A model generated the notes under the pieces. It searched no databases. It saw only the letters and a program-made list of their open reading frames with translations, and was not told where the DNA came from. From NCBI GenBank assembly GCA_017161665.1, contig JADFCT010000001.1, positions 1 to 34,161 of the forward strand: a DNA stretch of 34,161 nucleotides, read 5' to 3'. Position numbers and translations under genes: made by a program. Shown here piece by piece: positions 2,391 through 27,328 of the stretch. Every line of letters begins with the position of its first letter. The first letter of the stretch is position 1. This DNA comes from Candidatus Sumerlaeota bacterium (GTDB lineage: Bacteria; Sumerlaeota; Sumerlaeia; JADFCT01).

Positions 2391-3509
2391 ATGTTGCAAG
2401 ACGTATCGAACGCTCGGTTATTGATTGTCGATGAGTCAGAGAGCGAAATTCAGGCTCTGGTTGAAGAACTGGGCGGGACCTATCGGCTGACAGTGGTTCG
2501 CGACGGTGAAGCGGCTTTGCGTGAAGTCAATCCGGTGGCCCCTGACCTCATCCTGTTGAATGTCTTTCTGCCTGACTTCGACGGGTACGAAGTGTGCCGT
2601 CGTCTCAAGGCCGATCCCGCGACGCGTGACATCCCCGTGATTTTTATCTCTGCGCCTCAGGATGCGGAGGATGAATCCAAAGGACTGGCCCTGGGGGCTG
2701 TGGATTATGTGGCCAAACCCCTGCGCGCGCCCATTGTCCGCGCCCGCATCCGAACCCATCTGACCCTGCGCAAGGCCTTTGTCAAACTCGAGCATCAGAA
2801 CCAGGCGCTGCGTGAGGCGGCGGAACTGCGCGAGGATGTCGAGCGCATTACCCGCCATGACATCAAGCAGCCCTTGGACAATATCCTCTCCATCCCGCCG
2901 CTGCTCGAAGCCCAGGGCGATCTGACCGAAACCCAGGCCATGCTCGTGAGTCGCATCCGCGAAAACGGCTATCGGATTCTGGATATGGTCAATCGCTCCT
3001 TTGACTTGTATAAGATGGAAAAAGGCGTCTATCGCCTTCAGGCGCAGCCAATCGATCTGTTGCCCGTGATCCGTCAGGCCCTGGACGATTCTAAACACAC
3101 CGTCCAGTCCAAGAAAATCGAATCAGAGATTCATGGTGGCTCGAGGGAGGATCGGCCGGGTTCGAGCGATGGCGCTTTTATGGTCCAGGGGGAGCAATTG
3201 TTGTGTTATTCCATGCTGGCCAATCTCATCCGCAATGCCGTGGAAGCGTCTCCCGTTCATGGACGGATTCGCGTCGATTTGGGTCGTGAAGGGGCAATGG
3301 CTTTAATCCGCATCCAAAACCAGGGCGCGGTCCCCGAATCCATTCGTGATCGGTTCTTTGACAAATACGTGACCGCTGGGAAGGAAAACGGCTCCGGACT
3401 GGGAACTTATTCGGCGCGACTGATCGCCGAAACCCACCAGGGGACCATCCAACTGGACTGTGGCTCCGATGACACCACGACGGTCACCGTTTTTTTGCCG
3501 CGGGCGTAG
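2391..3509 (+). CDS. Hybrid signalling protein: N-terminal receiver (REC) domain with Asn at the phospho-acceptor position, fused to a HisKA-type helix and an HATPase_c histidine-kinase domain
   Basis: The track ORF is 2313..3509 (TTG start). I prefer ATG 2391 (GAAGGA 10 nt upstream), which gives MLQDVSNARLLIVDESE. REC motifs: LLIVDESE, PDLILLNVFLPDFDGYEV, IPVIFISA, DYVAKP. H-box ITRHDIKQPL; N-box LANLIRNAVEAS; G-boxes IQNQGAVPESIRDRFFDKY and GSGLGTYSARLIAE. Confidence 0.85.
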   Translation: MLQDVSNARLLIVDESESEIQALVEELGGTYRLTVVRDGEAALREVNPVAPDLILLNVFLPDFDGYEVCRRLKADPATRDIPVIFISAPQDAEDESKGLALGAVDYVAKPLRAPIVRARIRTHLTLRKAFVKLEHQNQALREAAELREDVERITRHDIKQPLDNILSIPPLLEAQGDLTETQAMLVSRIRENGYRILDMVNRSFDLYKMEKGVYRLQAQPIDLLPVIRQALDDSKHTVQSKKIESEIHGGSREDRPGSSDGAFMVQGEQLLCYSMLANLIRNAVEASPVHGRIRVDLGREGAMALIRIQNQGAVPESIRDRFFDKYVTAGKENGSGLGTYSARLIAETHQGTIQLDCGSDDTTTVTVFLPRA

Positions 3510-3751
3510 CAGATCCGATCGTTTCGCCGACGGGTGTGTTGGGTTTCCTCTCGATTCCAAAAAGCGATTGACTCGCGGGCTTTGGAAGCAGTATGCACGT
3601 GTTTTGTGAAACTGTTTTTCAGTTGTGGATCTGCAGCCGATTTGTCTTTGGCCCTGAAGAATTCACAGAGGCTTTCCATTGGATGCCTTTGTGACTTCTG
3701 TCGGCTGATGGCATGGCGCTGACAGATAATCATATTTTTGTATAATCAAGG

Positions 3752-6700
3752 ATGCCGGCTATGAAGATGCGTGTTCGCACAGCTGTCTTGAGTTTGATGA
3801 TGGCGCTGGGTTTGACTTTGGAACTTTCGGCTCAGGCGCCGTTGTTTCAGGACTCGTTTAATGAGAGTGTCATTCAAAGACCCGAGAGATGGAAAGTGTG
3901 GGGGGACATGCCGTCGTCCGGTTTGCATTATGTGGTTTCCAATGGTGAGTTTTATACCGGCAACGGGGATGATCTGATTAGCGAAAGCGGTTTCACCTAT
4001 GCCACAGTGGATGCGGCCATTGGAGGGGCGTGGACCGACTACGCAGTCGATGTCTATTTCCGTGGCGCCCAATACAACGGTGAGATTCGTATTGTTGGCC
4101 GCTTTCAAGATTCCGATAACCATTATGCGGCCTATTTTAATATCTCCAACTCCATCGACACCGGTCGTCGTCGCAAGGCCGGTATTGAACGGGTGTTGGA
4201 AGGTCAGCGCACGCTGTTAGGGAAAGAGATTGTGGATGGTGTCAACGGCGTTTCGATCCCGAAGATTGAAGGAATGCGGGAGCGGAATGAACGGCGTCAT
4301 GCGCGTCTGGTGTTTAACGGATCGACGATCGCTCTGTTTCTTGATGATGAGCAGTTGGTGGCCGTTGAAGACGATGCGCTGGAGTCGGGCACGGCTGGAG
4401 TGGGACAGCGTTGGAATGAGGTTTTCTTCAGTGAATTTCGGATTTTTCCGTCCAGACCCGATGATATCAAGATGGCGGGAAAGCCGGGCGAAATTATGCC
4501 GGCCATGACGCGCGCCGCTCAGGCGGAACCGCCGGTTTTCTATTGGGTTAATATGGGCGATGGGTTGTCACAGGCTGAGGCGGAGGCGATGATCTCGGAC
4601 TTGATCGACCAGGGGATATTTAATGGGCGCGCGGTGCAGGAAAATGGCCAGTGGCAGGTTGTGACCGGGGCCTTCTTTTCTTCCGAAGCCGCCGAGCGGA
4701 GTCAGGTCTTTTTAAAGGATCGGGGGTTGTCGCCGAAAGGTGTAATCCAGACGAAAGTGGAACTGGCGGCCAATGAAAAAGAGACACTCTATGAGTATCG
4801 TATTGTCTCCGGAACCTATAACGATCCGGCGACGGCGGGGCTCTTGAAGGACGCGCTGCTCAACGAGGGTTTTGGTACCGCTCGCATCGTAACCGAAGGG
4901 GGCGCGCACGCCGTCGTGGTGGGGCCGTATCCCACACAGCGGAGCGCTTACAGCGCACTGGAACGTATGCGCGCCGGTGGATTCACCGGGATGACAACCT
5001 CACGCCGGGAACTGGTTCGGATCTCGAGCGACATCAAGGACATGGCGTCCGGTGACATTGAACGCATCATCGCGGCCAGTGTTTCACGTCTGGATGAAAA
5101 AGAACGGGATGACATGGAGGCTGTGATCCGTTCGGTCGTCAGTACGGTGATGAAGGAACAGGACGCCCGGACGGTTGAGGAACTCAAGGCCATTCGCGAG
5201 AAATTGGCGGCCATGGAGAACCAACAGGGCCTTGTCGAGCAACTGAATCAGAACATTGCCAACGAAAAGAAACGCCAGGGAAAGATTGCCGGTTTGCTCT
5301 CCATGGTCGGCGAAGCGGTGGATCTGAAAAACTGGGAAAAGGCGGAAACAGCCTTAAAAGACCTGGAGTCCTTTGACCCGAACAATCCCTTGATTGATGT
5401 CAAGCGACAGTCAATCAGCATGGGCAAGGCGCGAATTGATGATCTGGGGGCGTGGATCAATGAGCAGTTCGACGCCCTTCGCAGTCAGGTTCAGTTATTG
5501 AGTATTCAGTCGGTGGCCGATGTGGAGAGCGCGTTGACTTTAGCGGCGCAGTTGGAGCAGGCGGGCGAGACCATTCCCGAACGTCTGGGCCAAGCCTTGC
5601 TGCAGTATGAATCCATCCGCGCCACGGCTAATGCCATGTTGGGCAAGGCCGGCAGCGATCCGGCTTTGCAGGCGGCGTTGCGTGAGGCCCTGACGGTGGC
5701 GCAATCCAAGATACAAATGCTGGATGGACGCTATCGCACGTATCTGGCGGCCAATCAGGATCGCATGGCCCACTTGGATCGGGTCGTAAGCGAACAGGCC
5801 GAGAGCCGTAGGATGAGTCAGTACGTTCTGATTGCCGTCGTGGCCCTGTTTGTTTTGATGGCGGGTGTGATTTATTTTCTGATGAAACAGAATCGTCGCC
5901 ATCGCGAGATTCTGGATTTGGTCAGTGAAATTCCGAATCGTCCGGCGGTGGCGTTTGCCGAAGAGCGGGGAAGCCTGGAATCCACCTCCCAGCCCAAGGC
6001 TTTGACGGCGGCCGCAGGCGTCGGCGCCGCCGGGGCGCTTGATCTGATGGCGGATAACATGGAGGAACCGGAACCCGATTTTGAGGACTCGTCTACCGAA
6101 GAACCCTCAAAATCTCCCGAGAAAACCGCGTCGGAGCCAGATGAAATGGACCAGACGCTGGACGATTGGGACAGTGACACCGTTTCTCTCGGATTAGAGG
6201 ATTCCGAGTCATCACCCATCGCCATGCCGGACATGACAAGCGAGTCTAATGACATCGAAGAAACCACCCCCGACCGTCTCGATGGCGATGTGGGGCTGGA
6301 TATGGACTTTTCTATGGAAGAGCCGATGGAGGAAGAAGAAGAAGAAGAAAAGACAAGGCCGGTGGATGACGTTGCTGAGGAAAAGTCGGAAGCGGAGTCC
6401 TTTGAAATGGGTGGACTTGATTTGGATGGATTCTCTTTGGAGGAATCCTCTCCGGAACTGGAAGAAGAGTCTGTCGAGGCGTCTTCCGAGTCGGAATCAC
6501 AGGAACCCCAATCGGGAAGCGCTTTGGGAGGCATTGATTCCGATCCATTGGAAGAACCGGACATGGATATGTTCGATCTGGGCTTGGATGATATGGGAGC
6601 CGAGCCGGTGACCGACGCCGAAGCGCCAGAGTCATCCACCGCGGCTGTGGAACCCAAGACGGCGGCGGTCGAAGACGAAACGCCCCTGATGGACGCGCCG

Positions 6701-7336
6701 AGTGGAGAGGATTTTGATCTGGGAGGCGATTTCGACTTTGGCGGTCTGGATTTTGATAATCTTACACCCGATGACGGGGAATCATCAAAAGCGGAAGCGA
6801 CAGAAAGCGCTCCGGAGCCGGTCTCTGAACCGGAGCCGAAGCCGGAGACCGTGGCGGAAGCCGATGCGCCGGCCGATCTGGATGACTTGGATCTGGGATT
6901 GGACCTGGGCCCCATGTTTGCCGATGTCGAGGAAAAACCAAAAGTGTCCATGCCTGCGCCGGCTCCAAAGGCCGAACCGGAGGATCTCAGCGGCATTGAG
7001 GATGTCAGCGGCGATGAACTGCTGGATCTGTCCGACATCCTGGGCGATGTGGGCGGGGATGCTTCGGGCGACGATGAGCCGGTGGCGCCGCCGGATGTAA
7101 ATGGGACTCCGAAAGCGCCGGCGTCAACAGAAGCCGCATCCACGGACGACTCGGATAATCCACTGGCGTCCAGCGATGCGGAAACACAGGTCATGAGTCC
7201 TCAGGAAATGGATATCTTCCGTTCGGAAGCGGAAGAGAAGTCGGAGGAGTCTGATCCGATGAGCGCGGACGATATCTTTGACCTTGGGGATATGGATTTT
7301 GACCTGTCCGATACAGAAACGGACAAGACCGAATAA
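3752..7336 (+). CDS. Type-I membrane protein: signal peptide, lectin-like jelly-roll module, two SPOR (peptidoglycan-binding) repeats, long helical region, one TM helix, ~480-aa acidic disordered cytoplasmic tail
   Basis: 1,194-aa ORF. The signal peptide is MKMRVRTAVLSLMMALGLTLELSAQA. A LamG/DUF1080-like jelly-roll spans aa ~30-232 (WKVWGD, YAVDVYFRG, ARLVFNGSTIALFLDDEQL, FFSEFRIF). Two SPOR-like repeats lie at nt 4535-4750 (VFYWVNMGDGLSQAEAEAMISDL...WQVVTGAFFSSEAAERSQVFL) and 4790-4996 (YEYRIVSGTYNDPATAGLLKDAL...HAVVVGPYPTQRSAYSALERM). The TM helix YVLIAVVALFVLMAGVIYFLM (nt 5822-5884) is followed by KQNRRHRE and then an Asp/Glu/Ser/Pro-rich tail to the stop. ATG 3761 or 3767 are alternative starts. 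Confidence 0.8.
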   Translation: MPAMKMRVRTAVLSLMMALGLTLELSAQAPLFQDSFNESVIQRPERWKVWGDMPSSGLHYVVSNGEFYTGNGDDLISESGFTYATVDAAIGGAWTDYAVDVYFRGAQYNGEIRIVGRFQDSDNHYAAYFNISNSIDTGRRRKAGIERVLEGQRTLLGKEIVDGVNGVSIPKIEGMRERNERRHARLVFNGSTIALFLDDEQLVAVEDDALESGTAGVGQRWNEVFFSEFRIFPSRPDDIKMAGKPGEIMPAMTRAAQAEPPVFYWVNMGDGLSQAEAEAMISDLIDQGIFNGRAVQENGQWQVVTGAFFSSEAAERSQVFLKDRGLSPKGVIQTKVELAANEKETLYEYRIVSGTYNDPATAGLLKDALLNEGFGTARIVTEGGAHAVVVGPYPTQRSAYSALERMRAGGFTGMTTSRRELVRISSDIKDMASGDIERIIAASVSRLDEKERDDMEAVIRSVVSTVMKEQDARTVEELKAIREKLAAMENQQGLVEQLNQNIANEKKRQGKIAGLLSMVGEAVDLKNWEKAETALKDLESFDPNNPLIDVKRQSISMGKARIDDLGAWINEQFDALRSQVQLLSIQSVADVESALTLAAQLEQAGETIPERLGQALLQYESIRATANAMLGKAGSDPALQAALREALTVAQSKIQMLDGRYRTYLAANQDRMAHLDRVVSEQAESRRMSQYVLIAVVALFVLMAGVIYFLMKQNRRHREILDLVSEIPNRPAVAFAEERGSLESTSQPKALTAAAGVGAAGALDLMADNMEEPEPDFEDSSTEEPSKSPEKTASEPDEMDQTLDDWDSDTVSLGLEDSESSPIAMPDMTSESNDIEETTPDRLDGDVGLDMDFSMEEPMEEEEEEEKTRPVDDVAEEKSEAESFEMGGLDLDGFSLEESSPELEEESVEASSESESQEPQSGSALGGIDSDPLEEPDMDMFDLGLDDMGAEPVTDAEAPESSTAAVEPKTAAVEDETPLMDAPSGEDFDLGGDFDFGGLDFDNLTPDDGESSKAEATESAPEPVSEPEPKPETVAEADAPADLDDLDLGLDLGPMFADVEEKPKVSMPAPAPKAEPEDLSGIEDVSGDELLDLSDILGDVGGDASGDDEPVAPPDVNGTPKAPASTEAASTDDSDNPLASSDAETQVMSPQEMDIFRSEAEEKSEESDPMSADDIFDLGDMDFDLSDTETDKTE
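6332..6349 (+). repeat. (GAA)6 trinucleotide run (preceded by GAG) encoding a Glu7 stretch inside the acidic tail
   Basis: Read directly as gag gaa gaa gaa gaa gaa gaa aag, in frame with the 3752..7336 CDS (MEEEEEEEK). Confidence 0.9.
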
Positions 7337-7478
7337 TCGGTTCGACTTATTCGAAACGCTTGGGATTGTGGATGGTGGGAGCGACAGGGAGCGCTGTATG
7401 ACGGGAACCCGGGATTGGCGTGATGCGCTTATCTCGGGTTTTGTCATAATGACTGCTTGATTGTGTCCATATAATTGC

Positions 7479-7518
7479 GACAATGAACCCATTGCGCCTA
7501 TGGGATTGTCATTTTTTC
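7479..7518 (+). terminator. Candidate intrinsic terminator downstream of the SPOR/acidic-tail gene
   Basis: GACAAT-gaa-CCCA pairs with TGGG-ATTGTC, giving 10 bp with a 3-nt bulge and a 9-nt loop. The hairpin is followed by A + TTTTTT (7512-7517). Confidence 0.4.
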
Positions 7519-7589
7519 AGACGCAGCCGACATGAAGTTTTATCTTCATTGACCCGATGGATTGATGTTTTGGAAAGTTTGGTTGGCCT

Positions 7590-10500
7590 ATGCCCTTGAC
7601 CGTTGAAAAAGATCTCTTTCGAGCCGTCAATGAGCAAGTGGACCCTCTGGCGATACTGAAACTGCTGGGGTGGTATCCCGAACTGGTCCGCCAGATGGGG
7701 GAGGCTATCCACAGCCGGTGTCCTTTGCACAAGGGGCTGTATTCCACGCTGCTGATTGACCGGAAGCGTCGAACGTATCTTTGTACGCGCCGCAGTTGCC
7801 GAGGGCATCGTGGCGGTGGGCTGGTGGATTTGTGGGCCACGGCAAACCGAATGGAGACGGTGCGGGCGGCTCTGGATTTGTGTGAGCGGTTTCATTTGGA
7901 AATCGATCGCGGGGCGCGGGCCGGCTGGAGTATGCGCTTGTTTGACGGCGCAGAAACCGCTTACGTCAAACGACGGCTGGATGAAGCGCTGGAGTTGACT
8001 CAAAAGTCCTTGGAACTGGATGGAGAGAATCTGGACGCGAAATTGCTCGGTGTCTCCCTTTTCATTGAGCGGGAGGACGTTGGAGGCGCCGTACGGCTGG
8101 GCAAGGAATTGATGGATGCGTTTCTCCGCCGAAATGAGCCGGATCGGGCGATTGAAATTGCGCAACGTTTACTGAGTGTTGAGCCTTACAGCGCAGAGAT
8201 CTACCAGCGCCTCCTGCGCGTTTTTGATGCGAAAGGGCAGCACGACAAGGCGCTGACACTGATTCGGGAAATGTGTGATCATCACAAGCGACAGGGAGAA
8301 CGGTCAAACAATAAGCAGTGGTATCAATTATGGCTCGAACGGGATCCCAGCCATGTGGATGCGCGGCGCGAACTTGCGGAGTTGGAACTGGAAGCGGGAC
8401 GGCAGGGTGAGGCGTTGGTCCATTTAAGACTGTTGCGTGATCAGTTGTTGTCCCAACGCGATGAGACGGCCGCCAATGAAGTTTTGGAGAAAATGATTCA
8501 GATCAAGCCTGACGACAGGCGTTCCTTATATGCCATGGGCCAACAGGCGTTTCGGCGAGGGGAGCGGGACGAAGCGCGGCGCATGTTTCAGCGGCTGGAA
8601 GAACTGTATATCGAAGCGCAGGACTACCCGAATGCGCAGTATTGTCAACGCTGGTTGCTACAAATATCCCCGAACGATCTGCCGACGCTGAGGCGGTTGG
8701 CCTGGGTGTCAGAGGCCTCCGGCGACTATGAAAAAGCCATGGAAGTTTATGAAAAGGCTTTGGGGATCGCCGAGAAAAATAAAGATACTGGAACACACAA
8801 GGAAATCAAAGATCGCCTGACCATGTTGAGCGACGCCGGGGTGGCCCGGCGTGTTGAAGCTGTGGACCAACTGCTACAGGCAGGGCGTGTGGAAGAAGGG
8901 TTGTCGGAACTGCACATGCTCGCAGACCGGCTAATTTCTCTCAAGAGGCTGGATGAGGCCGGGGAACTGAACGAGCGGATTAGTTCGACAGCGGGGAATC
9001 GGCTCGACCATCGTATGCGCGTGGCGCGACGGTGGGAGGCCATCAACAATAAGGAGCAGGCGCTCCGGGAATATTTTGAAGTGGCGCGTCTGGCCGAAGG
9101 TCCAACGAATGCCGTCCTCCGGATCGAAGCCGGCGAGCGTGGGCTTGCGCTGGAACCCAAGAATACGGATATGCTCGAACTGTATTTTCTGGGCCGTCGC
9201 GACGCGGGGGATTGGGAGGAAATGCTGGAATGTGGGTATCGGCTTGTGGACACGTATATCGGGCAAGGTCGGGACGAAGAGGCGGAAGGCATTCTGAAAA
9301 TCTGTCTGGAACAGGCGCCGCGCGACCCTGACAGCCGTCGACGCCTTGTCGATCTCTATGGCCGTCAAGAACGGTTTGACGATTTGCGCGTGTGGTTTGA
9401 CGAATGGGCTGACCCCTTGCCGACGGGTGAACGCGCTGGGGAACTGTTGGATCTGTGCCGGCTTTGTCTGGAGCAATACGCCGGATGCGCCGGCCTTCGG
9501 CTCCGGATCATCGAGATCTGTACCCAGATGGGAGCGGTTGATCTGGTGGCGGACACCATGCGCGTTGAGGCGGAAGTGTTGCTGGCAAATGGCGACGTGG
9601 ACGCCGGTCGTCGGATACTCGAAGAAATCCTGGCCTTGACCCCCGAGGATCACAAGGCGGTCACCGCGTTGGCCAAGGTGGTCCATAAATATGAGTCCTT
9701 TGATGCTGCGGCGCCGCATTATCTCCATGCCATTGAATTGCGGCATCACGATGCGCCGGATAGTACCCTGCGAACAGCCTATCAGCGCGTTCAGGGGTAT
9801 GATGAACACAACCTTTCCGTGCGGAGCGCCTACGCCAACTATCTGGAACGGATGAGCGACTGGCTGGCCGCGAAGGAGCAATACCTCATTTTGGCCGATC
9901 ACCTTGCGGAACAGGGCGACCAGACAGCTGAAGCCATGGCGGTTTTGGAGTATGTCAGTGATGTGGACCCGGATGATCCGTCCGTGGGATTCAAACTGGC
10001 GGCACTCTGTCACGAATCGGGTGAAACAGTTAAAGCCATTTCGGTTCTGAGGGACCTGGCGGCTCGTCTGGCGGCGGGAGGTGATGACGATAGCGCCCTG
10101 GCGGCTTATGAACGGATTCTGACAATGGATCCGCTGGATGGGCCGGCGGGCGAAGGAGTCGCGGACGCCCTGATCCGGCGGGGGGATGTGGCTCAGGGGA
10201 TCGAACGTTGCCTGATCATGGCGCGACAATGTCTCGAAAACGAGGATGAGCGCGAAGCGGCCCGATCGGCGGCGTCATGGCTGGATCGAATCGTCGCCGC
10301 TGATGATACGCATCAGGAAGCGCTCCTCAAGAGCGCCAGAGTCTGGCAGTCTTTGGGAAGCGTGGACAAAGCCCTGGAACGATATCGCCGACTGGCGCAG
10401 TTGCTGGACGCTGGGGATTTAGCATCTGAAGAGTCCATTGAGGTGTATGAGGCGATTGTCTCTTTGGCGCCGGATGATCTGCCGGTTGGCGAACGGCTGG

Positions 10501-13364
10501 CCGGGATGTACGAAACGATCGGACGGTTGGACGAGGCCAAGTCGGAATATCAGCGATTGAGCGATATTTGTGTTTCACGGAAAGATGTCGATCGGGTCGA
10601 GGTTTATTTCAAACGAATGCAGGCGCTGGATCCGAGCGACGCCGTGAGCGCGGAACTGTTGGGACGTTTATACCAGAAGAAAGGCGATTCGACCGCCGCT
10701 TTTGCCGAATACAAGAAAGCGGCGGATATCTATTGCGATGATGATGACGCGCCGCACGCGATCCCCATGCTGAATATCCTGAAAAAACTGAATCCGAACG
10801 CCCTGGATGTTCGCGAACGGTTGATCGCGATGCTGGCCTCAGAGCGGCAGGTGGGGCGGGCGGTTGTGGAATGCAGTGAACTGTGTCGGACGGCTTTTGA
10901 GGCTCAGGATGTGGATTGCGCTTTGCGTGTGGCCAATCGACTGGCTCAGATCGCGCCGGACGCCAAGGGGGCGCGACTGGAAAGTGTTCGCCTGATGAGT
11001 CAGCACGGGCGTCGGGAGGCGGCACAAGCCGAAATGACCGCGCTGTTAGAACGCTTTGAAACGAATCGTCGCTGGGAACAGGTTTTGGAACTTGCGGATG
11101 TCGCGCTGGAATTGTTTCCCGATGAGCCAGCCTACGCTTCCATGCGGCTTAAGGCGTTTAAAGAATTGGGGAGAGAAGGCGAAGCCGTTACCGATGCCCG
11201 GCGTCTGGCGGAAGACTACCGCCGTCAGGGAGAATGGAACGCGGCGGTCGAGGCATACCGTCAGGTGGTGGGTCTGGCGCCACGCGATCTGGAATCACTT
11301 CAGGCGTTGGGGGAAATCTATTCCGAGCAGGGACGCCATGCCGAGGCTTTGGACGCATTCCGTTCGATTGTAACCATTACGGCGGAAGATTCCAATTTTG
11401 AGCGCGCCATTCAGGCGCAGGAACGGATTGTGGGATTGGAGGGAGCGTCTCTGGTTGAGCGGCGGACGCTGGCGCGGCTTTATGATCAGACTGGCCGAAC
11501 GGACGCCATGGCCGAAGAAATGATGACCTATGCCATGGCTTGTGTGGGCCAGAGTAATCCGGCCGAAGCGCGGGCGGCTTTTGAGGCTATTCTGGCGGCT
11601 GTCCCCCATCACGAATCAGCGCTCCGGCACTTGGTGGATTTGTATGCGCACGCCGGCGACGAGGCCGGCGCCTGCCAGCTGCTGATGGACAAGGGACAGG
11701 CGTTCATGAACAGCGGCGATTGGTCTCAAGCAGAGGAGACCTTGCTGTGGGCTAACGAAATGGATCCACAGAACGCCGAGGCGCGCCGAAGATGGGCCGT
11801 CTTGTTGACGAAACTTGGCAAAAAAGAGGTCGCGATCCAGCAATGGAAACGAGTCGCCGAGCTGGTGGGAGAGTATGGCGCTGTCCTGAGCGAACCTGAA
11901 TCGTTGAGCCTGTCTCAAATATGGACACAGGCCGTGGCGCTGGCGCCCGATGACGCCGAGTTACGGGTTGCGCGGGCCTCCGCTCGTGAATCGGAGGGGG
12001 CGGATAGTGACGCGGTTGATGACCTGCTGAGCGCCGTTCGCTTATGCTATGATCAGGGAACGATGGCCCGGGCCCTGGATCACTGCCGCCGGGCGCTGGC
12101 GATTTGCCAGAAGCGGCAACTGGATGAAGCGGCCGCTCGGGCGCATCATCTCCTGATGGATATTTACGCGGAACAGAACGACGCCCCCCGCGCCGTCAAT
12201 GAGATTCAGTTGCTCTATCAGCGTTATGTCAATGCCGGTCAGCTGGCCGAGGCGGAAGAACTGCTCAAGCGGGGGCTGGAACTGGATCCGGAGAATGCCA
12301 GGCTCAATGTCTGGATGGGGGAAACCTTGTTGAGCCTCAATCGAAAAGGACTGGCGGTCAAGTCACTGATCAAAGGGATGAATCTGTTCGACCAGATGGG
12401 GGACGCGGATCACCGGGATGAAATTCTGGATAAGATCCTTGTATTGGAACCGGATAATGCGGAAGTAATCCAACCACTGATTCAGTCTCTACTGCGAAAA
12501 GGTGAAAACGAAGAAGCGTTTCGCAAAATGGCCGATCTCGCCAAAATCCACCTGCAGAAGGGGGGCTTTGACAAGGCCGAAGAAGAGTATCGGCGCATTC
12601 TTTCCTATCAGCCGGACAATGAGCAGGCGTGGCAGGGGTTGATCCAAACCCATGAGCGAATGGGTGCCCCATCGGATCTGACGGCAGACTATATGGGCTT
12701 GAGCGAGGTGTACCTCAAGGTCGGCCGTGTGTTTGACGCTGTACAGACCTTGCGAAAGGCTTTGGATTCGGATCCCGACAATGTTTCCTTGCGCCGGAGA
12801 TATTTGGAACTCTATCTCCAGGTGGGCCCCGAAACGGACTTGATTGATGATTATCTACAACTGGCGGCGGCTTATGAGCGGTTAGGACAGGCGCAGGAAG
12901 CGCGGCGCTGGTATAAGAAGGTAAAAGCCCTGACTCCGGATAACGAAATTGCGAACGAGTTTTTGCGGCGAGGGGAACTGGCCGCGACCATGGAGTTGCG
13001 CCGCGATCGCCTCGACGCCATGATTCAGGCCGCCGTCAATCAACCGGTCGATGAGACTGAAAAAATACCGGAAGAACAAATCGCCAATTATCGAAGTATC
13101 CTGAATATCAATGAACACAATACCGATGTACGCATTGAATTGGCGGAGTATCTGGATCGGGTGGGGCAGGTGGACGAGGCCTATCAGGAATGGGTAAAGG
13201 CCGGGGAATCATTAATCCTCAACGGTTCCGTCAGCGAAGGGATCGAAATTCTTGAACAAATGACCCGACGCAAGCCCAACGACGCCAAAGTTCGCGCTTC
13301 CCTGTCCCGCGCTGTCCTGAAGCGTGACGCCTTTTCCGCCATCGATTCGCTGTTTGACGATTGA
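7590..13364 (+). CDS. 1,924-aa cytoplasmic megaprotein: N-terminal primase-type CHC2 zinc-finger-like domain followed by ~1,800 aa of TPR-like repeats
   Basis: ATG at 7590. Residues 17-105 read VDPLAILKLLGW...HSRCPLHKGLYSTLLIDRKRRTYLCTRRSCRGHRGGGLVDLWA, i.e. CxxH...CxxxxC in a zf-CHC2-like context. The remainder is continuous TPR-like helical hairpins, for example ALELDPENARLNVWMGETLL, ILSYQPDNEQAWQGLIQTHERMG and ALDSDPDNVSLRRRYLELYLQVG. I saw no signal peptide, TM helix or Walker-A (GxxxxGK[ST]) motif. Confidence 0.85.
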   Translation: MPLTVEKDLFRAVNEQVDPLAILKLLGWYPELVRQMGEAIHSRCPLHKGLYSTLLIDRKRRTYLCTRRSCRGHRGGGLVDLWATANRMETVRAALDLCERFHLEIDRGARAGWSMRLFDGAETAYVKRRLDEALELTQKSLELDGENLDAKLLGVSLFIEREDVGGAVRLGKELMDAFLRRNEPDRAIEIAQRLLSVEPYSAEIYQRLLRVFDAKGQHDKALTLIREMCDHHKRQGERSNNKQWYQLWLERDPSHVDARRELAELELEAGRQGEALVHLRLLRDQLLSQRDETAANEVLEKMIQIKPDDRRSLYAMGQQAFRRGERDEARRMFQRLEELYIEAQDYPNAQYCQRWLLQISPNDLPTLRRLAWVSEASGDYEKAMEVYEKALGIAEKNKDTGTHKEIKDRLTMLSDAGVARRVEAVDQLLQAGRVEEGLSELHMLADRLISLKRLDEAGELNERISSTAGNRLDHRMRVARRWEAINNKEQALREYFEVARLAEGPTNAVLRIEAGERGLALEPKNTDMLELYFLGRRDAGDWEEMLECGYRLVDTYIGQGRDEEAEGILKICLEQAPRDPDSRRRLVDLYGRQERFDDLRVWFDEWADPLPTGERAGELLDLCRLCLEQYAGCAGLRLRIIEICTQMGAVDLVADTMRVEAEVLLANGDVDAGRRILEEILALTPEDHKAVTALAKVVHKYESFDAAAPHYLHAIELRHHDAPDSTLRTAYQRVQGYDEHNLSVRSAYANYLERMSDWLAAKEQYLILADHLAEQGDQTAEAMAVLEYVSDVDPDDPSVGFKLAALCHESGETVKAISVLRDLAARLAAGGDDDSALAAYERILTMDPLDGPAGEGVADALIRRGDVAQGIERCLIMARQCLENEDEREAARSAASWLDRIVAADDTHQEALLKSARVWQSLGSVDKALERYRRLAQLLDAGDLASEESIEVYEAIVSLAPDDLPVGERLAGMYETIGRLDEAKSEYQRLSDICVSRKDVDRVEVYFKRMQALDPSDAVSAELLGRLYQKKGDSTAAFAEYKKAADIYCDDDDAPHAIPMLNILKKLNPNALDVRERLIAMLASERQVGRAVVECSELCRTAFEAQDVDCALRVANRLAQIAPDAKGARLESVRLMSQHGRREAAQAEMTALLERFETNRRWEQVLELADVALELFPDEPAYASMRLKAFKELGREGEAVTDARRLAEDYRRQGEWNAAVEAYRQVVGLAPRDLESLQALGEIYSEQGRHAEALDAFRSIVTITAEDSNFERAIQAQERIVGLEGASLVERRTLARLYDQTGRTDAMAEEMMTYAMACVGQSNPAEARAAFEAILAAVPHHESALRHLVDLYAHAGDEAGACQLLMDKGQAFMNSGDWSQAEETLLWANEMDPQNAEARRRWAVLLTKLGKKEVAIQQWKRVAELVGEYGAVLSEPESLSLSQIWTQAVALAPDDAELRVARASARESEGADSDAVDDLLSAVRLCYDQGTMARALDHCRRALAICQKRQLDEAAARAHHLLMDIYAEQNDAPRAVNEIQLLYQRYVNAGQLAEAEELLKRGLELDPENARLNVWMGETLLSLNRKGLAVKSLIKGMNLFDQMGDADHRDEILDKILVLEPDNAEVIQPLIQSLLRKGENEEAFRKMADLAKIHLQKGGFDKAEEEYRRILSYQPDNEQAWQGLIQTHERMGAPSDLTADYMGLSEVYLKVGRVFDAVQTLRKALDSDPDNVSLRRRYLELYLQVGPETDLIDDYLQLAAAYERLGQAQEARRWYKKVKALTPDNEIANEFLRRGELAATMELRRDRLDAMIQAAVNQPVDETEKIPEEQIANYRSILNINEHNTDVRIELAEYLDRVGQVDEAYQEWVKAGESLILNGSVSEGIEILEQMTRRKPNDAKVRASLSRAVLKRDAFSAIDSLFDD

Positions 13365-13377
13365 TCCCGCTGAAACC

Positions 13378-13406
13378 GAAGCGCGCAACGGTAGTTGTGC
13401 GCTTTC
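13378..13406. terminator. Stem-loop between convergent genes; candidate bidirectional terminator
   Basis: GAAGCGCGCAAC-ggta-GTTGTGCGCTTTC forms about 11 bp including one G-U pair. Short U-stretches flank it on both strands (GATTTC on +, GGTTTC on -). It lies 14 nt after the TPR-gene stop and 20 nt after the epimerase stop. Confidence 0.4.
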
Positions 13407-13425
13407 GATTTCTATGGGGGGCTGT

Positions 13426-14376
13426 CTAGGCTTCTTCCGCGATTGACTCGCGATACCAGTCAATCGTTCGCTGGAGGCCTTCCTTGAAGGAAACCGTCGG
13501 TTCATAGTGCAGGTTCTTCCGGGCCAGCGATATGTCGGCCTTCGAGTGCTGGATGTCGCCAACGCGGGGGGGGCCAAACGTTGGTCTCACATCACAGCCG
13601 ACAATTTCGGCGACGGCCTCATATAATTCCAGAAGATTGACCGACTCGCCGCAAGCCACATTATAGACCTGTCCTTCGGCCTTGAAATCGCCTGTGGCGG
13701 CCAGAATATTCGCTCGCACATTGTTTTCCACGTACGTGAAATCCCGCGATTGCAGCCCGTCCCCATATATGGTCGGCGCGTCGCCTTGGAGCAGTTTTGT
13801 GATGAACAGCGAAATGACGCCGCTGTACATGGAGGACGGATCCTGTCGTGGACCGAAGACATTGAAGTATCGGAGGCTGACGGTTTCGAGACCATAACAG
13901 GCGCTGAAGGCGCGCAGGTAGTATTCGCTTGCCAGTTTGGCCACACCATAGGGAGACAGCGGATCCGGACGCATCGTCTCGGTTTTGAAATCGCCGGGTT
14001 GATCGCCGTATGCGGAACTGGAGGCGGCATAAACCAGACGTTTGATTTTGGCGTCCCGCGCTGCCGTGAGCAGATTGATGGTTCCGGTCGCGCAATGATT
14101 GTGTGTGACCAGAGGGTCCTCCACGGATTTGGCTACGGAAGGTAAAGCCGCCTGATGGAGAATGTAGTCCATCCCGTTCACAGCTTTGACGCAATCGGCG
14201 GGATCGCAAATATCGCCTTTGATGAACTCCACTTGATCACCGAATCGATCGACATTCCTTTGATAGCCCGTGGACAGGTTGTCCAGAATCCGAACCGATT
14301 CGCCATTTTTGAGCAAAAACTCCGTAATATTGGAGCCAATAAAACCCGCTCCGCCCGTCACCAGATAGTTGGCCAT
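13426..14376 (-). CDS. NAD-dependent extended-SDR nucleotide-sugar epimerase (UDP-hexose / UDP-HexNAc 4-epimerase-like)
   Basis: The track ORF is 13426..14436. I prefer ATG 14376 (AGGTGA 5 nt upstream), giving MANYLVTGGAGFIGSN (Rossmann GxxGxxG). The catalytic YxxxK is in YGVAKLASE. RYFNVFGPRQDP and YGDGLQSRDFTYVEN are typical of the WbpP/TviC/GalE-like group. The substrate cannot be determined by eye. Confidence 0.88.
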   Translation of the reverse strand: MANYLVTGGAGFIGSNITEFLLKNGESVRILDNLSTGYQRNVDRFGDQVEFIKGDICDPADCVKAVNGMDYILHQAALPSVAKSVEDPLVTHNHCATGTINLLTAARDAKIKRLVYAASSSAYGDQPGDFKTETMRPDPLSPYGVAKLASEYYLRAFSACYGLETVSLRYFNVFGPRQDPSSMYSGVISLFITKLLQGDAPTIYGDGLQSRDFTYVENNVRANILAATGDFKAEGQVYNVACGESVNLLELYEAVAEIVGCDVRPTFGPPRVGDIQHSKADISLARKNLHYEPTVSFKEGLQRTIDWYRESIAEEA

Positions 14377-14624: not shown

Positions 14625-16313
14625 ATGAAAATTAAAAAAAACCTGATAAGACTTTTTCGTCTGGCGCCGGATCGAGAGGACATCACGCAAAATTGGCGCG
14701 AATATCTCGCGGCCGGTTTATCGGGCGGTATCCTCCGTCTTGCCTTTCCCCAACCGGATCTCGGGTGGTTGGCATGGGTGGGGCTGGTTCCCTTGTTTTG
14801 GGCTTTACGCCGGCAAACGGGCAAAGCGGCCTTTTATCGGGGCTGGTTTTTCGGATTTGTTTTTTATTATGGGATTTCGTTTTTTCTGAATACCCTCCAT
14901 GTCTTTGCGCCGGTTGTTGTGATTGGAATCGTGGCGTTGGGCCTGATCCAGGGATTGTATGCCGGTGTCTTTGCCTGGGGGGTGGGCGTCTTGGGGCGAA
15001 AAAGCCGGAAAAGTGTGATTTGGTTTGCGCCCGCCTGGTGGACGCTTCTGGAGTCCATCCGCTCTTCAGGGGAACTGGGCTTTCCCTTCGGCGCCCTGGC
15101 GCATTCACAGTACAATCAGACCGGATTGATCCAATTGGTTTCCCTGACGGGAACAGGGGCGCTGTCATTTTTGATCGTCTGGATTAATGGTCTGGTGGCC
15201 GATCTTTTTTTTGACGATGAACGGCCCATCCGACGTCGGGCGCTGGATTGCACGGTGGGACTGACGGCGCTGGCGACGGTCTGGGGGGCGGGCTATGGCG
15301 TTTCCCGGATTGATTTGGCGCGAGGGGATACGTTTCATCTGACATTGATTCAACCCAGTGTGCCGCAGATCGAAAAATGGAACAGTTATATGATGTATCC
15401 CCAGTCACCGGCCACAGCCATGAAGGCATGGGATGCGATGGCCCGACAGATTGTGGAAATGACGGATGAAGCGCTTGCCGCCGTTGGTTCGGGGGCGGAA
15501 GGATCGACAGCGGCGCCGGATATGATCATCTGGCCAGAGACCGCCATTCCCGATTTTTTCTTCAATGTGTCTGAAGGCGCTGGTCAGCCGCCTCGCTATG
15601 CGCAGCTGGTCGAGGAAGCCGCTGTCAAATGGCGGACACCCATTCTGATGGGCGCGGCCCGTCAGGTGATGGCCGACGATGGCCGTCGAGCCCAGGAGTC
15701 CTATAACAGCGCCTATGTCTTTACGCCGACGGGCGGGATGAGTGATCAGACCTACGACAAAATCCATCTGGTCCCCTTCGGGGAGGATATGTCTTATCTG
15801 CGCTTTATTCCATATATTGAGGCGATCGGTCTGACGGTCGGGAGTTTCGACCGGGGGAAGTCGATGACGGTTTTCGAAGTTCGTGGCGCGGAAACGCAAC
15901 AGTCCATGCGCTTTTCGACGCTGATTTGTTTTGAATCCACCATGCCTTATCTGTTCCGTCGGGCTGCCCGCGCGGGCGCCGAGTTCATGGTCGTCGTCAC
16001 AAACGATGGCTGGTATGGCGTATCCAGTGGGCCGAAACAGCATCAGATTCAATCAATCTTTCGCGCCGTCGAAACCGGCCGGTGGGTGGTTCGGTGCGCG
16101 AATAATGGGATCAGTTGCTTCATATCGCCGCAGGGGCGCATCGCGAGAGCGACCGAGTTGAACGAAATCGGCAGTCTGTCGGCGTCCATTTATCCCAGGA
16201 CGGGACAGACGCCCTATGTGCGCATCGGCCCCTGGTTTGGATGGTTGTGCTTCATACTGTGTGGGGTTGGTTTGGGGAGGGCGGTACGGCGCAAGCCGAC
16301 GCCGGATTTATAG
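14625..16313 (+). CDS. lnt: Apolipoprotein N-acyltransferase
   Basis: 562-aa ORF with a polytopic N-terminal membrane region and a C-terminal CN-hydrolase domain. The Lnt catalytic-triad contexts are IIWPETAIP (Glu), YDKIHLVPFGE (Lys) and TLICFES (Cys). Confidence 0.9.
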   Translation: MKIKKNLIRLFRLAPDREDITQNWREYLAAGLSGGILRLAFPQPDLGWLAWVGLVPLFWALRRQTGKAAFYRGWFFGFVFYYGISFFLNTLHVFAPVVVIGIVALGLIQGLYAGVFAWGVGVLGRKSRKSVIWFAPAWWTLLESIRSSGELGFPFGALAHSQYNQTGLIQLVSLTGTGALSFLIVWINGLVADLFFDDERPIRRRALDCTVGLTALATVWGAGYGVSRIDLARGDTFHLTLIQPSVPQIEKWNSYMMYPQSPATAMKAWDAMARQIVEMTDEALAAVGSGAEGSTAAPDMIIWPETAIPDFFFNVSEGAGQPPRYAQLVEEAAVKWRTPILMGAARQVMADDGRRAQESYNSAYVFTPTGGMSDQTYDKIHLVPFGEDMSYLRFIPYIEAIGLTVGSFDRGKSMTVFEVRGAETQQSMRFSTLICFESTMPYLFRRAARAGAEFMVVVTNDGWYGVSSGPKQHQIQSIFRAVETGRWVVRCANNGISCFISPQGRIARATELNEIGSLSASIYPRTGQTPYVRIGPWFGWLCFILCGVGLGRAVRRKPTPDL

Positions 16314-19300
16314 GGCAGAGTATTTCTGCACGTAATGCAGGAAGGCGTCGTGAATGCGGGTTTGGCATTCCTGGATTTGTTTTGTAAAAGACTGGGTGTC
16401 GTGCGTTACGCCCAGGACCCGTCGAGCCAAAGCATTGATTTCGCCCTCATCCTTGGGGAGCGCGTGGGTTTGGCGGTCTTCCATGATTTGCAGAAAGTGT
16501 TCCGTGCGCCGCAGCAGGATGTAGTCCCGGCTCAGGGAGTCCGCCTGTTCGCTGCTCAAATGGCCGGCGGTGGTTAAGGCGCCAATGGCTTTGAGCGTAT
16601 TCCCCTCGATCAGGTTCTCGTCGTCATGAACGTGGGCCAGTTGCATTCCCTGAACCAGAAACTCGATATCCCGAATTCCTCCGGCGCCGTCTTTGATGTT
16701 TCGCAGTCCGGCCTCCCTTCCGGATTCGAAGAGATGTGAGCCGGATTGGCGAGTGACGCGTTGCATGGCCTGCTTGCGGAGTGAGTCGATAGACCATGCG
16801 ATTTTTGAGGCAGGGCGTTGTCGCTTGAAAAGGGAATGCAGACCGCGCATCAACCGAGCGCCGGTGGATGTGGAGCCGGCGATGGGGCGAAGTTTCAGAA
16901 GGGCCTGAATTTCCCACAAGCCAGCCACTGTTTCGTAGTATCGCTGTACCGATTCAACGGATTGGGCCAGCGCGCCACCCCGCCCATAGGGGCGCAGCCG
17001 CAGATCAATGCGATAGATGTGTCCTTCGGTCGTGTGATCCGATAGGTCATGCCGCAATTGTTCAACAGCAGAAACAAAGACTGGATCAAAGGGACCCTCG
17101 TAAACGGCAAGCAAGTCGATATCGGAACTGTAATTGAGTTCGCTTCCGCCGAGTTTTCCAAAGGCGAGGATACAAAATCGATCGGCTATCTCTTGCGCGC
17201 TTTCTGGATGTTCGGAACTAAAGCGATCCAACGTGGCTTGCACCAGTGAATCGGCGAGCACGGACAGATCGGCCGTGATCTGATCCAGGCGCGCGCCCAG
17301 GCAGACGTCGCGTGCGCCAATGCGCAGGAAGTGTCGGCGGCGGAATCGTCGGAGGGCGTCCAGCCACAGTTCGCGGTCGTGAAGGTCCGCCCCAAGGGCG
17401 CGCAACGCCTCGAGTGTCTCGCGCCGAGTCAGTGAACGATTCAGAACGGCTGGCGATGTGGCCCATTCAAAGAAGTCGGGATTGGTAACAAGCGTATTGG
17501 CCAGGAATTGACTGGTGGCGACAATACTCAGGAACACATCGAGCCGTTTCGGTTGAGCCAAGAGCGTTTCAAAATGATGCTTCGCGTCGGGCAGGACGTT
17601 GACGAAGCGTTCCCAGTTGTTCAGGGCCATATCGGGATCGGCCATGTCCTTGAGCATATCACAGGCTAAGACGGCCAGCATGGCGAATCGTTCCGCCTGT
17701 TCGCCCTCTCCTGCCAGTCGGCGCAGGTTGTGCGCGGCGCGGGTTGTATTTTTGAGACCGAGTTTGTGGAGCGCGCTGTGACTCAGCTCTTCGGACGGCA
17801 TAGATGAAAAAATCACGTCCGCCACGTTTCCTGTCACCGGTCCGGGCAGCGAGTCGCGTCCGAAATGCTTTTCCACAAAGGAGCGAACAACAGCGGTGTG
17901 GGTTTCAAAATCGACGTAGAGTTGATGGGCGGCGCGCAGATCCCCTTTGCGCTCATATCCCATTCGACGCGCCAGGTGTCGGAATTCCGTGGAGTCCATG
18001 ACCGGCAAAAACAGGTCTTTCGCGTTACCCCGGAGCATACGCAGGCCATTGATGACATGGCGAAGAAAATAGTAAGCCTTGTCCAGCCGTTCACTTTCTT
18101 CCGGAGACAGCACCTGGACATCCCGAAGGGCTTGCAAAGCCATGTGAATGCGTGGAGTGCGGGGGGATTCGTTTTCACGTCCACACATTACCTGAAGGAT
18201 TTGCACATCATATTCCAGGTCAACCAGCCCGCCGGGAGAGAATTTGACATTGGGCGTAGGGCCGGCCTTTTCCTGATACTGTCGATGGCGCAGTTCGCGC
18301 AACTGCGTCACATCGATGCTGTCCGCCTCGTAAATGAATTCATCACGCAGCCGTTCGAACCGTTGTCCCAGGTTTTTGTCGCCTGCCAGGGCGCGCAAGC
18401 GAACCAGGGCGAGCCGTTCATACGAATGCGCCTCTCCACCGGGTCCAAAGTATCGACAGAAGGCTTCCAAACTGCACGCCAAGGGACCTTTTTTGCCATG
18501 GGGGCGCAGTTGCAGGTCGATTTCAAAAATCCCTTCCCGCTTGGCCTGAATGATTTCGAGGAATTCGCGGGCCATGCGTTCAAAAAACTGGGCATTTTCA
18601 ATTGGATTGGCCCCGTCGGTCCGACCGTTATCACTGTAAACGAAAATCAATTCCAAATCGGAAGCATAGCCCAGCGCAATGCCGCCGAGTTTTCCTAATC
18701 CCAATACGGCGAAAGGGGCCTCAATGCCGCCGATGGTCCGCGGCACGCCGTACTGTTCCTTCAGGTGCGCATAAGCCAGATGGTAGGCGCTTTGGAGGAC
18801 GGTTTCGGCCAGAAAGGTCAGTTTTTCGGCCATGGCGCGCGGCTCATACGTGCCGGTCCCTAGAATGTTTTCCAAATCGATCAGGAATATCTCATGATCT
18901 TTAAAAGTGTTGAGCGCTTTGATTTTATCTTCATAGATCTCAACCAAATCCAATGCGCTCGTGAGGCGCGCGATCAGAGTTTCCGTATGGAAAAACTGTT
19001 CGGCTCGTTCTGCCGGTTCCAGAATGGGCGACAGGGCTTCATACTGGAGTCGGATGAAATCCTCCCATATAAAATCACTGGCGCCCAGAACCCGAGCGAG
19101 ATCATTGAGATTCCGCGTTTGTGAAAAGGATTCGATCCAACGAATGCTTTCGGGCAAACACATTACATCATGGAGCAGTTTATTGAATCGAGTCAGGGCG
19201 CGATAGGGATCGGGCGCTGTCGGGAGAAAGTAGGTGAATTGCTTGGTGAAAAGGACCGACATGCGAATCAGCCGGAGCGATTCTTCATCTTCAATACGAC

Positions 19301-20102: not shown

Positions 20103-20160
20103 GATGGGTCCCTGATTCGTTGGTGGCAGCGGTTGGCTCAAGGTTTCGACGGGAGTGGTG

Positions 20161-25321: not shown

Positions 25322-25555
25322 TCAGTCAAATAACACCAGGACATCTCCTTCACGCACATGATCCCCTTCATCGACCAGTATCTCTTTGATCGTGCCGGTT
25401 TCGGGGGAAGGTAATCGGATGTCCAGTGTCGATGTCGCCAAATGCACAATTTCATCGCCTTCGCGGACATTCTGTCCTTCTTCACAATACCACTCTATCA
25501 CGCGGGCTTCGATCAGGTCACCCGTCAGTTTGGGCATAATCATGGAATGGGTCAT
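25322..25555 (-). CDS. Stand-alone biotinyl/lipoyl-type hybrid-barrel domain protein lacking the modifiable lysine
   Basis: 77-aa ORF reading MPKLTGDLIEARVIEWYCEEGQNVREGDEIVHLATSTLDIRLPSPETGTIKEILVDEGDHVREGDVL. It aligns with E2 lipoyl domains, but the E-T-D-K-A/V hairpin reads A-T-S-T-L. ATG 25543 or 25537 are alternative starts. Confidence 0.7.
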   Translation of the reverse strand: MTHSMIMPKLTGDLIEARVIEWYCEEGQNVREGDEIVHLATSTLDIRLPSPETGTIKEILVDEGDHVREGDVLVLFD

Positions 25556-27284: not shown

Positions 27285-27328
27285 GAGAAGGATGGTCTGT
27301 TGGCTGTCAACCGATTCATTGTCTGACT

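Follow-up and report, generated by a model that had tools for sequence, protein, structure and literature searches.

A candidate peptidoglycan-anchored scaffold of Candidatus Sumerlaeota: a SPOR membrane protein paired with a zinc-finger/TPR giant

On a contig of a Candidatus Sumerlaeota bacterium (JADFCT010000001.1) two large genes stand next to each other, one for a membrane protein with SPOR repeats (gene 1) and one for a giant protein of tetratricopeptide repeats (TPR) behind a zinc finger (gene 2), and the question that they raise is whether the two products work together and, if so, at what. We have analyzed this locus in its window, the complete 34,161-bp NCBI contig, and in related genomes. 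An initial annotation made from the sequence alone had read the pair as an undescribed scaffold reaching from the envelope into the cytoplasm, with a logic like that of the polar hub proteins FimV and HubP; the coordinates that it gave for both genes agree with the list of open reading frames (ORFs). Sumerlaeota is a widespread phylum that is known from metagenome-assembled genomes (MAGs) and whose cell biology is unknown (PMC8092238). As judged from sequence comparison, the two genes are a conserved module that is restricted to Candidatus Sumerlaeota (BRC1) and undescribed. The explanation that we prefer, and to which we give an even chance of being right, is that they build a Sumerlaeota-specific, peptidoglycan-anchored trans-envelope scaffold. 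The features of the locus are collected in Table 1.

The pairing was assessed by synteny. The scan used as its query the C-terminal domain of the gene 1 family (alignment A2), with one genome per GTDB species, and all of the Sumerlaeota genomes recovered are metagenome-assembled. It returned 33 loci in 33 genomes, 31 of them titled Candidatus Sumerlaeota, Sumerlaeia or BRC1; since the query misses copies without the C-terminal domain, the window's own lineage is under-sampled in these counts. In 21 of the 33 genomes a zinc-finger/TPR giant lies directly downstream of the gene 1 homologue on the same strand, with gaps of 45 to 289 nucleotides (nt), and this linked state covers at least five deep clusters of the gene 1 family. 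The cross-genome adjacency by which the initial annotation proposed to judge the pair is thus present in 21 of 33 genomes and wanting in 12. Seen from the other side, a SPOR gene is found immediately upstream of the giants P0005, P0006, P0010 and P0012 on the same strand, that is, in four of six independent contexts of TPR giants. Only one close homologue of gene 1 exists among 5.8 billion clustered proteins (P0002, 41% identity); the gene that follows it begins 5 nt downstream and has an N-terminus 56% identical to that of gene 2 (CHC2/TPR). When all ORFs of the loci were clustered, genes 1 and 2 were the only ones co-conserved. After them in frequency comes a GT4 glycosyltransferase, at 9 loci, and the other flanking genes are unrelated housekeeping genes (ispH, rpoA, menaquinone genes). 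By its gene pair, the window would come from a divergent lineage of Sumerlaeota. We found the pair, the C-terminal domain and the finger/TPR family described neither in curated libraries nor in the searchable literature.

The gene 1 family, as defined by alignments A2 and A3, has 34 aligned members, and every member with a taxon name belongs to Sumerlaeota. Gene 1 and its family have a common architecture: a signal peptide, two SPOR repeats, a helical stalk, a transmembrane (TM) helix, a positive stop-transfer segment and a disordered linker. SPOR is present in 32 of the 34 members, and a single TM helix in all of them. Only the long forms (~1,000-1,190 amino acids (aa)) have an N-terminal sandwich; in the short forms (~750 aa) the signal peptide leads straight into SPOR. 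Within 15 residues of the TM helix the 34 members average 4.6 lysines plus arginines after it vs 2.4 before, the net charge rises from +0.2 ahead of the helix to +2.7 behind it, and the C-terminal side is the more positive in 26 members. Taken with the signal peptide and the domains of periplasmic type, this positive-inside bias points to an N-out/C-in topology, and it supports the cytoplasmic position that had been proposed for the C-terminal tail of gene 1.

The acidity of that tail, on which the initial annotation had laid much weight, is not conserved among the homologues. The cytoplasmic linker measures 152 to 484 aa in the family, and its net charge lies between +16 (proline-rich forms) and -54 in the homologues and reaches -126 only in the window. 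With a charge so variable, the giant acidic tail represents a peculiarity of one lineage. To judge from the alignments, the conserved cytoplasmic elements of the family are the juxtamembrane helix and a ~190-aa C-terminal domain, rich in beta-structure and predicted to be cytoplasmic, which carries the motifs NKYLLGFYxEKDxDFRxSxHT ... LNTxSIRDNLAT. All 33 aligned homologues have this domain (33/34 members); it is missing from the window copy, and a six-frame tblastn search of the window did not find it (best E 0.32). It is ~50% identical across clades, the remainder of the protein ~20%, and this cytoplasmic element appears to be under selection. Neither Pfam nor NCBIfam has a model for it, and the PDB contains no relative by sequence. 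Sub-threshold Pfam hints are concanavalin A (ConA)-like (Laminin_G_3 and a sialidase carbohydrate-binding module (CBM), E 0.02-0.05), and an hhalign comparison with the N-terminal sandwich was negative (probability 10%). We regard the domain as a candidate new domain family. The claim that the pair belongs to no known family stands as far as Pfam and NCBIfam are concerned, where nothing curated covers it beyond SPOR, TPR and the zinc ribbon. A metagenome scan yielded two loci (one from the L001 organism, the other with its tail off the contig) and no relative that likewise is without the C-terminal domain. As a separate observation, the SPOR gene of one Sumerlaeota clade is preceded by a gene for a ~1,820-aa protein (L028:2733-8192, L037:2319-7808, L038:2547-8084) with a weak AsmA-family match (E 7e-4), which may be of an envelope-spanning lipid-transfer type.

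The modules of the window protein itself were examined with Pfam, with family profiles and with an AlphaFold2 (AF2) model, which was built on a two-sequence alignment and has a mean confidence score (pLDDT) of 39.8. Gene 1 and P0002 are 37-41% identical from residue 9 to ~970. The N-terminus fits a signal peptide by eye, in agreement with the initial annotation. The module that follows gives a weak Pfam match to 3keto-disac_hyd/DUF1080 as a single sequence (E 0.037), and the best homologue reaches E 2.5e-7; a profile of 11 family members matches the CBM66 of a Bacillus levanase (4azz) with E 1.2e-5, and the AF2 model is all-beta, with low pLDDT. The 4azz match and the DUF1080 scores of the homologues make a ConA-like, sugar-binding sandwich a fair description of it. 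The lectin-like jelly-roll that had been proposed here is thus upheld as CBM66-like by the family profile, but it is weak in a single sequence and optional in the family. The two SPOR repeats had been recognized correctly: Pfam SPOR (PF05036) scores 49.1 bits vs a cutoff of 21, and AF2 gives two beta-alpha-beta-beta units with pLDDT ~60-79. AF2 helices span aa 422-724, with pLDDT 60-82 over 500-670. A weak TPR_14 match (E 0.14) lies at ~aa 517-548, and TPR Pfam matches occur in about five family members, counted without regard to region. The protein has one hydrophobic span besides its N-terminus, with a Kyte-Doolittle value of 2.97, and KQNRRHRE stands directly after it, as had been read before. 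The juxtamembrane segment is conserved in related clades as a [KR]-rich stretch followed by a ELLRQVQELTLKP-like sequence, the window version being REILDLVSEIPNRP. From residue 713 to 1194 (482 aa) the net charge is -127, with 31% D+E, and AF2 renders the tail as a featureless coil (pLDDT ~25, from a shallow alignment). No DNA tandem repeats are found in the tail, and gene 1 encodes no cysteine.

Within the acidic tail a short motif recurs. The pattern hydrophobic-D-hydrophobic-[GSDN] has 13 matches vs 1.0 +/- 1.0 in composition shuffles, and none of 2000 shuffles reaches 13. The instance LLDLSDILG (aa 1089-1097) is common to gene 1 and P0002, which are 41% identical; a further example from the window is DDIFDLGDMDFDLSD. 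One to three copies of the motif occur in 10 homologues that have a TPR neighbour and none in 11 that do not, a correlation that is suggestive.

Gene 2 answers closely to the first description of it, a CHC2 finger followed by TPR throughout, with no TM segment by hydropathy and no Walker A motif (P-loop). Its first 125 residues match Pfam Zn_ribbon_DnaG (PF01807) with E 2e-4 and 21.4 bits, just below the cutoff of 24.9. A profile of ten homologues of the finger matches residues 7-122 of Aquifex DnaG (2au3) with E 1.5e-7, and the four zinc ligands (C44, H47, C65 and C70) are invariant over seven homologues. An AF2 model of aa 1-340, from an eight-sequence alignment, has a pLDDT of 91 (~74-91 over the zinc-binding domain) and consists of a four-stranded ribbon and helices that run into the TPR; Foldseek with this model returned TPR structures only (consensus TPR, OGT, APC/C). 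The start codon was confirmed through the N-terminal alignment with homologues. Gene 2 has a net charge of -91 and an isoelectric point (pI) of 5.0. Its zinc-binding domain is the sole basic part (pI 9.3), a character that is not conserved, the pI of this domain being 4.5-9.0 in homologues.

The relatives of gene 2 were gathered by a full-length query and then by the finger profile. With a limit of E 1e-3 the profile retrieves 458 clusters (50% identity), and with the stricter limit of 1e-10 it retrieves 220. They fall into length classes of ~3,050, 2,950, 2,600, 2,400, 1,920 and 1,360 aa. Full-length relatives of 2,400-3,120 aa have the same finger and the same C-terminal motif, and tblastn with the C-terminal 150 aa retrieves orthologues. 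P0059 (1,918 aa) shares 39% identity with gene 2 along its whole length, and a 1,360-aa member that was tested consists of finger and TPR and nothing else. The zinc finger is degenerate in P0012 and P0013. At least two paralogues join finger and TPR to the domain III ATPase of DnaA, without DnaA domains I or IV: P0013 (L043:5249-9382) reaches 315 bits on TIGR00362 (model positions 87-338), and P0088 matches Bac_DnaA with E 1.6e-65. Such a fusion resembles Hda with a giant TPR arm, and a description of it was not found. A longer contig from the L001 organism (L045:5868-9215) carries a TPR gene that stops at 1,115 aa in non-TPR sequence; compared with the 1,918 aa of P0059, it may reflect a chimeric assembly or a frameshift.

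The arrangement of the two genes, 253 nt apart, is operon-like: a promoter match 5' of gene 1, a weak hairpin in the middle, and a strong terminator only past gene 2. The promoter match is the best within 3300-13800. Only 6 nt separate its end from the first ATG of gene 1, and for this reason the true start may be M4 (3761), at which the database copy P0001 also begins. With this layout (3719-3767) the mRNA of gene 1 may be leaderless, or translation may begin at M4 (3761) or at M6 (3767). The terminator that the initial annotation had placed between the genes exists as a hairpin with a U-run, but it is modest: the hairpin alone (7479-7510) has -11.4 kcal/mol and a z-score of -3.05, and in a 61-nt context it is indistinguishable from shuffled sequence (z -0.77). 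The hairpin after gene 2 has -23.2 kcal/mol and z -4.87, and none of 200 shuffles is equally stable. These signals make co-transcription of the two genes, with some attenuation, plausible. Searches for tRNA, for Rfam families and for DNA tandem repeats that would suggest an artefact found none.

From the domain content, the predicted topology, the restriction to Sumerlaeota and the adjacency of the genes we infer a septal address, a physical contact between the two products and a role as a scaffold, in the following manner. The signal peptide of gene 1 would be cleaved and its periplasmic part, composed of the optional sandwich, two SPOR repeats and a partly TPR-like stalk, would be held on peptidoglycan; by analogy with other SPOR proteins (FtsN, DamX, CwlC), the repeats would prefer denuded septal glycan. 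The TM helix leads through the conserved juxtamembrane helix into a long disordered cytoplasmic linker, which in nearly all relatives ends in the ~190-aa beta-rich domain. On this contig, where the domain is missing, the linker has expanded into the 480-aa polyacidic tail with its ~13 short acidic-hydrophobic motifs. The cytoplasmic end of gene 1 may draw gene 2 to the membrane, most lineages using the domain for this and the window protein its short motifs, and gene 2 would then be a platform for further clients. We consider the role to be a core rather than an accessory one, since neither protein has a PADLOC match and the neighbours are housekeeping genes.

Several points weigh against such a scaffold. 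The giants P0008 and P0009 have no SPOR gene upstream, and in 12 of the 33 genomes, mostly of one clade, the giant is not within the fetched flank. The cleavage of the signal peptide and the specificity of SPOR for denuded glycan are assumed from other systems. A charge-driven contact between tail and TPR is not favoured, because gene 2 is itself acidic (net -91), and the comparison of motif with adjacency is not phylogenetically independent. Since the C-terminal domain is missing from the window, the coupling through gene 1 may differ there or be lost. The structure model of gene 1 is, moreover, a poor one.

Comparison with known systems shows what is shared and what is new in this design. 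FimV, HubP and TspA follow the order of signal peptide, periplasmic wall module, TM helix, long, variable, unstructured and frequently acidic cytoplasmic region, and TPR, which binds the clients (PMC12918733), an order that the pair parallels; in both cases the disordered region varies in length and charge among relatives. A single TM helix followed by an acidic unstructured region is also seen in gene 1 of the window, the acidity not being family-wide. The wall module here, however, is a double SPOR with or without a ConA-like sandwich and not LysM, of which there is no match in gene 1 (Pfam and NCBIfam, E up to 0.1) and none among the families that the 34 homologues match with E up to 0.01. 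TPR comes from a gene of its own (1,900-3,300 aa) with a primase-type finger, and most relatives of gene 1 end in a beta-rich cytoplasmic domain that FimV and HubP do not have. Neither gene matches the FimV C-terminal motif or the FimV model, and there is no sequence homology. The FimV/HubP-like logic proposed at the outset therefore holds as a parallel of architecture, but neither protein is a member of that family.

FtsN, DamX, DedD and RgsS are likewise single-pass proteins whose SPOR binds denuded septal peptidoglycan and whose cytoplasmic part meets partners (PMC7327166, PMC12772221), and in RgsS and DamX the cytoplasmic region is large and poorly conserved (PMC7327166, PMC12772221). FtsN, DamX and RgsS, however, are N-in with a C-terminal SPOR, the cytoplasmic part of FtsN being a short peptide that binds FtsA, whereas in gene 1 SPOR is N-terminal, after a signal peptide, and the cytoplasmic part is C-terminal; the SPOR of gene 1 is also duplicated, unlike that of these four proteins. 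The FtsN model (NF008179) matches gene 1 over the SPOR region alone (E 0.016, 14.7 bits vs a cutoff of 525). Gene 2 shares homology with the zinc-binding domain of DnaG over its N-terminal ~125 aa, with the CHC2 ligands and a ribbon followed by helices, but gene 2 has no TOPRIM/RNA-polymerase domain and no DnaB-binding/helicase-binding domain, and carries ~1,800 aa of TPR instead. SgmX is comparable as a large soluble TPR solenoid and a plausible recruitment platform at a defined membrane site; it has no zinc finger and no SPOR partner, and the similarity to its model (NF052243) is generic to TPR. The Arp protein of Treponema pallidum reportedly combines an acidic repeat region and SPOR in one envelope protein. 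Its acidic repeats, unlike the tail of gene 1, are said to be in tandem, with no membrane span between them and SPOR and no TPR partner.

Among the alternatives, the one that survives best refines the scaffold by naming its client: gene 1 would mark septal peptidoglycan and the finger of the giant would hold DNA or a part of the replisome, tying the nucleoid, or the origin or terminus, to the division site. The DnaG zinc-binding domain binds template DNA, and the N-terminus of gene 2 is homologous to it and is the only basic part of the window protein. Paralogues P0013 and P0088 carry the DnaA ATPase, and SPOR proteins of model bacteria act at the septum (PMC12772221, PMC7327166). Yet the basicity of the finger is not conserved, the finger itself is degenerate in two proteins, one of them P0013, and the DnaA fusion is found in paralogues and not in the SPOR-linked giants. 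Nor is there a conserved neighbour with a role in replication or segregation, and zinc ribbons are often reused for protein contacts. We judge this coupling to DNA or replication, for which the evidence is indirect, to be unlikely; it is the most interesting specific hypothesis, and should be treated as a lead.

A simpler possibility is that the two proteins are independent, gene 1 being a SPOR division or envelope protein, a counterpart of FtsN, DamX and RgsS with reversed topology, and gene 2 an unrelated TPR protein that is adjacent by inherited order. The genomes in which adjacency is lost and the two giants that stand alone fit such a view, as do the candidate terminator between the genes of the window and the acidity of both proteins. 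The finger/TPR family, moreover, with its many length classes and architectures, may exceed the SPOR-linked set, its neighbours having been viewed at only a handful of loci. What tells against it is that the immediate, same-strand order has been kept over at least five deep clades while all other neighbours changed, with gaps down to 5 nt. Persistent adjacent order is usual for functionally coupled genes, which makes independence the less likely reading; we find it rather doubtful.

The scaffold can also be stated in a much bolder form. The pair would be the core of a hitherto unrecognized system of cell organization found throughout the phylum. A SPOR anchor of reversed topology would mark the division site or new pole and dock a megadalton-scale TPR solenoid, through the beta-sandwich domain or the acidic motifs, while the primase-derived finger engaged DNA or the replisome; the state of the septal wall would thus be coupled to chromosome replication or segregation, and the DnaA-ATPase paralogues would be a sister branch. 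In this full form the proposal is speculative and distinctly unlikely to be right.

We consider it improbable that the pair is a transmembrane signalling system, in which gene 1 would monitor the condition of the wall and, depending on it, retain or release the finger/TPR protein as a DNA-binding regulator, in the manner of membrane-tethered regulators and anti-sigma systems. The single-pass protein with its periplasmic glycan-binding modules and conserved cytoplasmic domain would suit this role, the zinc ribbon of the partner is potentially nucleic-acid-binding, faint BTAD-type matches are seen in some giants, and the window has a gene for a hybrid histidine kinase/receiver just 5' of the pair. 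However, TPR arrays of 1,900-3,300 aa are typical of scaffolds rather than regulators, the kinase is not a conserved neighbour, and no helix-turn-helix or sigma-related domain is present.

A hub for type IV pili or polar motility, like FimV/TspA or SgmX of Myxococcus, is very improbable. The architectural parallel to FimV/HubP (PMC12918733), the weak TPR-only matches to the SgmX and PilW models and the pilT gene of the window (at 27329) all point in its direction, and all Sumerlaeota MAGs are reported to carry genes for type IV pili (PMC8092238). But the scores fall short of their cutoffs (SgmX 97.9 bits vs 1800, PilW 131 vs 154) and reflect generic TPR similarity, LysM and the FimV motif are missing, and pilT is 14 kb away, past unrelated metabolic genes. 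The neighbours conserved over 36 loci include no pilus gene, and on this ground we rejected the hub as the main explanation; the distance of pilT had already been given as a caveat in the initial annotation, and we find no tie between the gene and the pair. A defence system or mobile element was discarded, both proteins having 0 PADLOC matches and housekeeping neighbours.

Table 1. Positions of the features of the two-gene locus, with examples of the C-terminal domain from related loci
Feature	Coordinates	Strand	Basis
Sigma-70-like promoter match (CTGACA, 16 nt spacer, TATAAT)	3719..3746	+	11/12 hexamer matches, consensus only
Gene 1, SPOR-anchored type I membrane protein, 1194 aa	3752..7336	+	ORF and translation
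Signal-peptide-like N-terminus, aa 1-27, ending LSA/QA	3752..3832	+	Read from sequence; most homologues similarly hydrophobic
ConA-like/CBM66-like beta-sandwich, aa 28-235, predicted periplasmic	3833..4456	+	Pfam, family profile, AF2
Two SPOR repeats, aa 262-335 and 347-420	4535..5011	+	Pfam SPOR E 7.4e-13, 2 stretches; AF2
Periplasmic helical region (predicted), aa 422-690; TPR-like DPxNPxID motif conserved	5015..5821	+	AF2
Single transmembrane helix, aa 691-711	5822..5884	+	Sole Kyte-Doolittle peak >1.6 besides N-terminus
Cytoplasmic juxtamembrane segment KQNRRHREILDLVSEIPNRP, aa 712-731: positive stop-transfer residues and conserved short helix	5885..5944	+	Homologue alignment
Acidic, predicted disordered cytoplasmic tail, aa 732-1194, without the family C-terminal domain	5945..7333	+	Charge, AF2, tblastn
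About eight clusters of the hydrophobic-D-hydrophobic-[GSDN] motif (FDLG, LDLG, MDFD and similar)	6296..7309	+	Shuffle test
Intergenic hairpin and U-run, candidate leaky terminator	7479..7518	+	Folding vs shuffles
Gene 2, zinc-finger/TPR giant, 1924 aa, cytoplasmic (predicted)	7590..13364	+	ORF; Pfam; start via homologue alignment
DnaG-primase-type CHC2 zinc-binding domain, aa 1-125, ligands C44, H47, C65, C70	7590..7964	+	Pfam, profile, AF2
Continuous TPR solenoid, aa 126-1924	7965..13361	+	Pfam TPR families down to E 2e-78
Family-conserved C-terminal amphipathic motif (RASLSRAVLKRDAFSAIDSLFDD)	13293..13361	+	Conserved in P0005-P0010 and P0012 C-termini
Strong intrinsic-terminator-like hairpin after gene 2	13378..13405	+	12-bp stem; folding vs shuffles
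C-terminal domain of the gene 1 family, examples (alignment A2)	L002:8700-9274, L004:9320-9884, 31 further loci		

A few other genes of the window deserve mention. A GlnE-type adenylyltransferase of 1,335 aa (16308-20315, minus strand) has GlnE and GlnD_UR_UTase domains in two stretches each; a typical GlnE has ~950 aa. Directly 5' of the PilT-type ATPase is an HDOD/HD-domain protein (26406-28411, plus strand for the two), a possible cyclic di-GMP-related or signalling partner of pilus retraction that is not linked to the SPOR/TPR pair. At 28805-30538 (plus strand) a GH62 arabinofuranosidase is fused to DUF1080/3keto-disac_hyd, of the same superfamily as the sandwich of gene 1, and at 33242-34156 (minus strand) there is a protein with a TSP3 repeat and dockerin; by their predicted domains, the fusion and the dockerin protein indicate a polysaccharide-degrading lifestyle. 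For four to five ORFs of 125-194 aa Pfam gives no match (49-633, 1015-1578, 1849-2334, 25386-26317).

If the scaffold proves true, the pair would be one of the first leads on the envelope, the division site or the chromosome organization of Sumerlaeota, and the design of FimV and HubP, with its wall anchor, TM helix, disordered linker and TPR platform, would have arisen independently from other parts. Two of the pieces have no curated family and could be defined as new, the cytoplasmic C-terminal domain and the fusion of a DnaG-type finger to TPR (458 clusters), and the paralogues that carry the DnaA ATPase supply a concrete, testable hypothesis.

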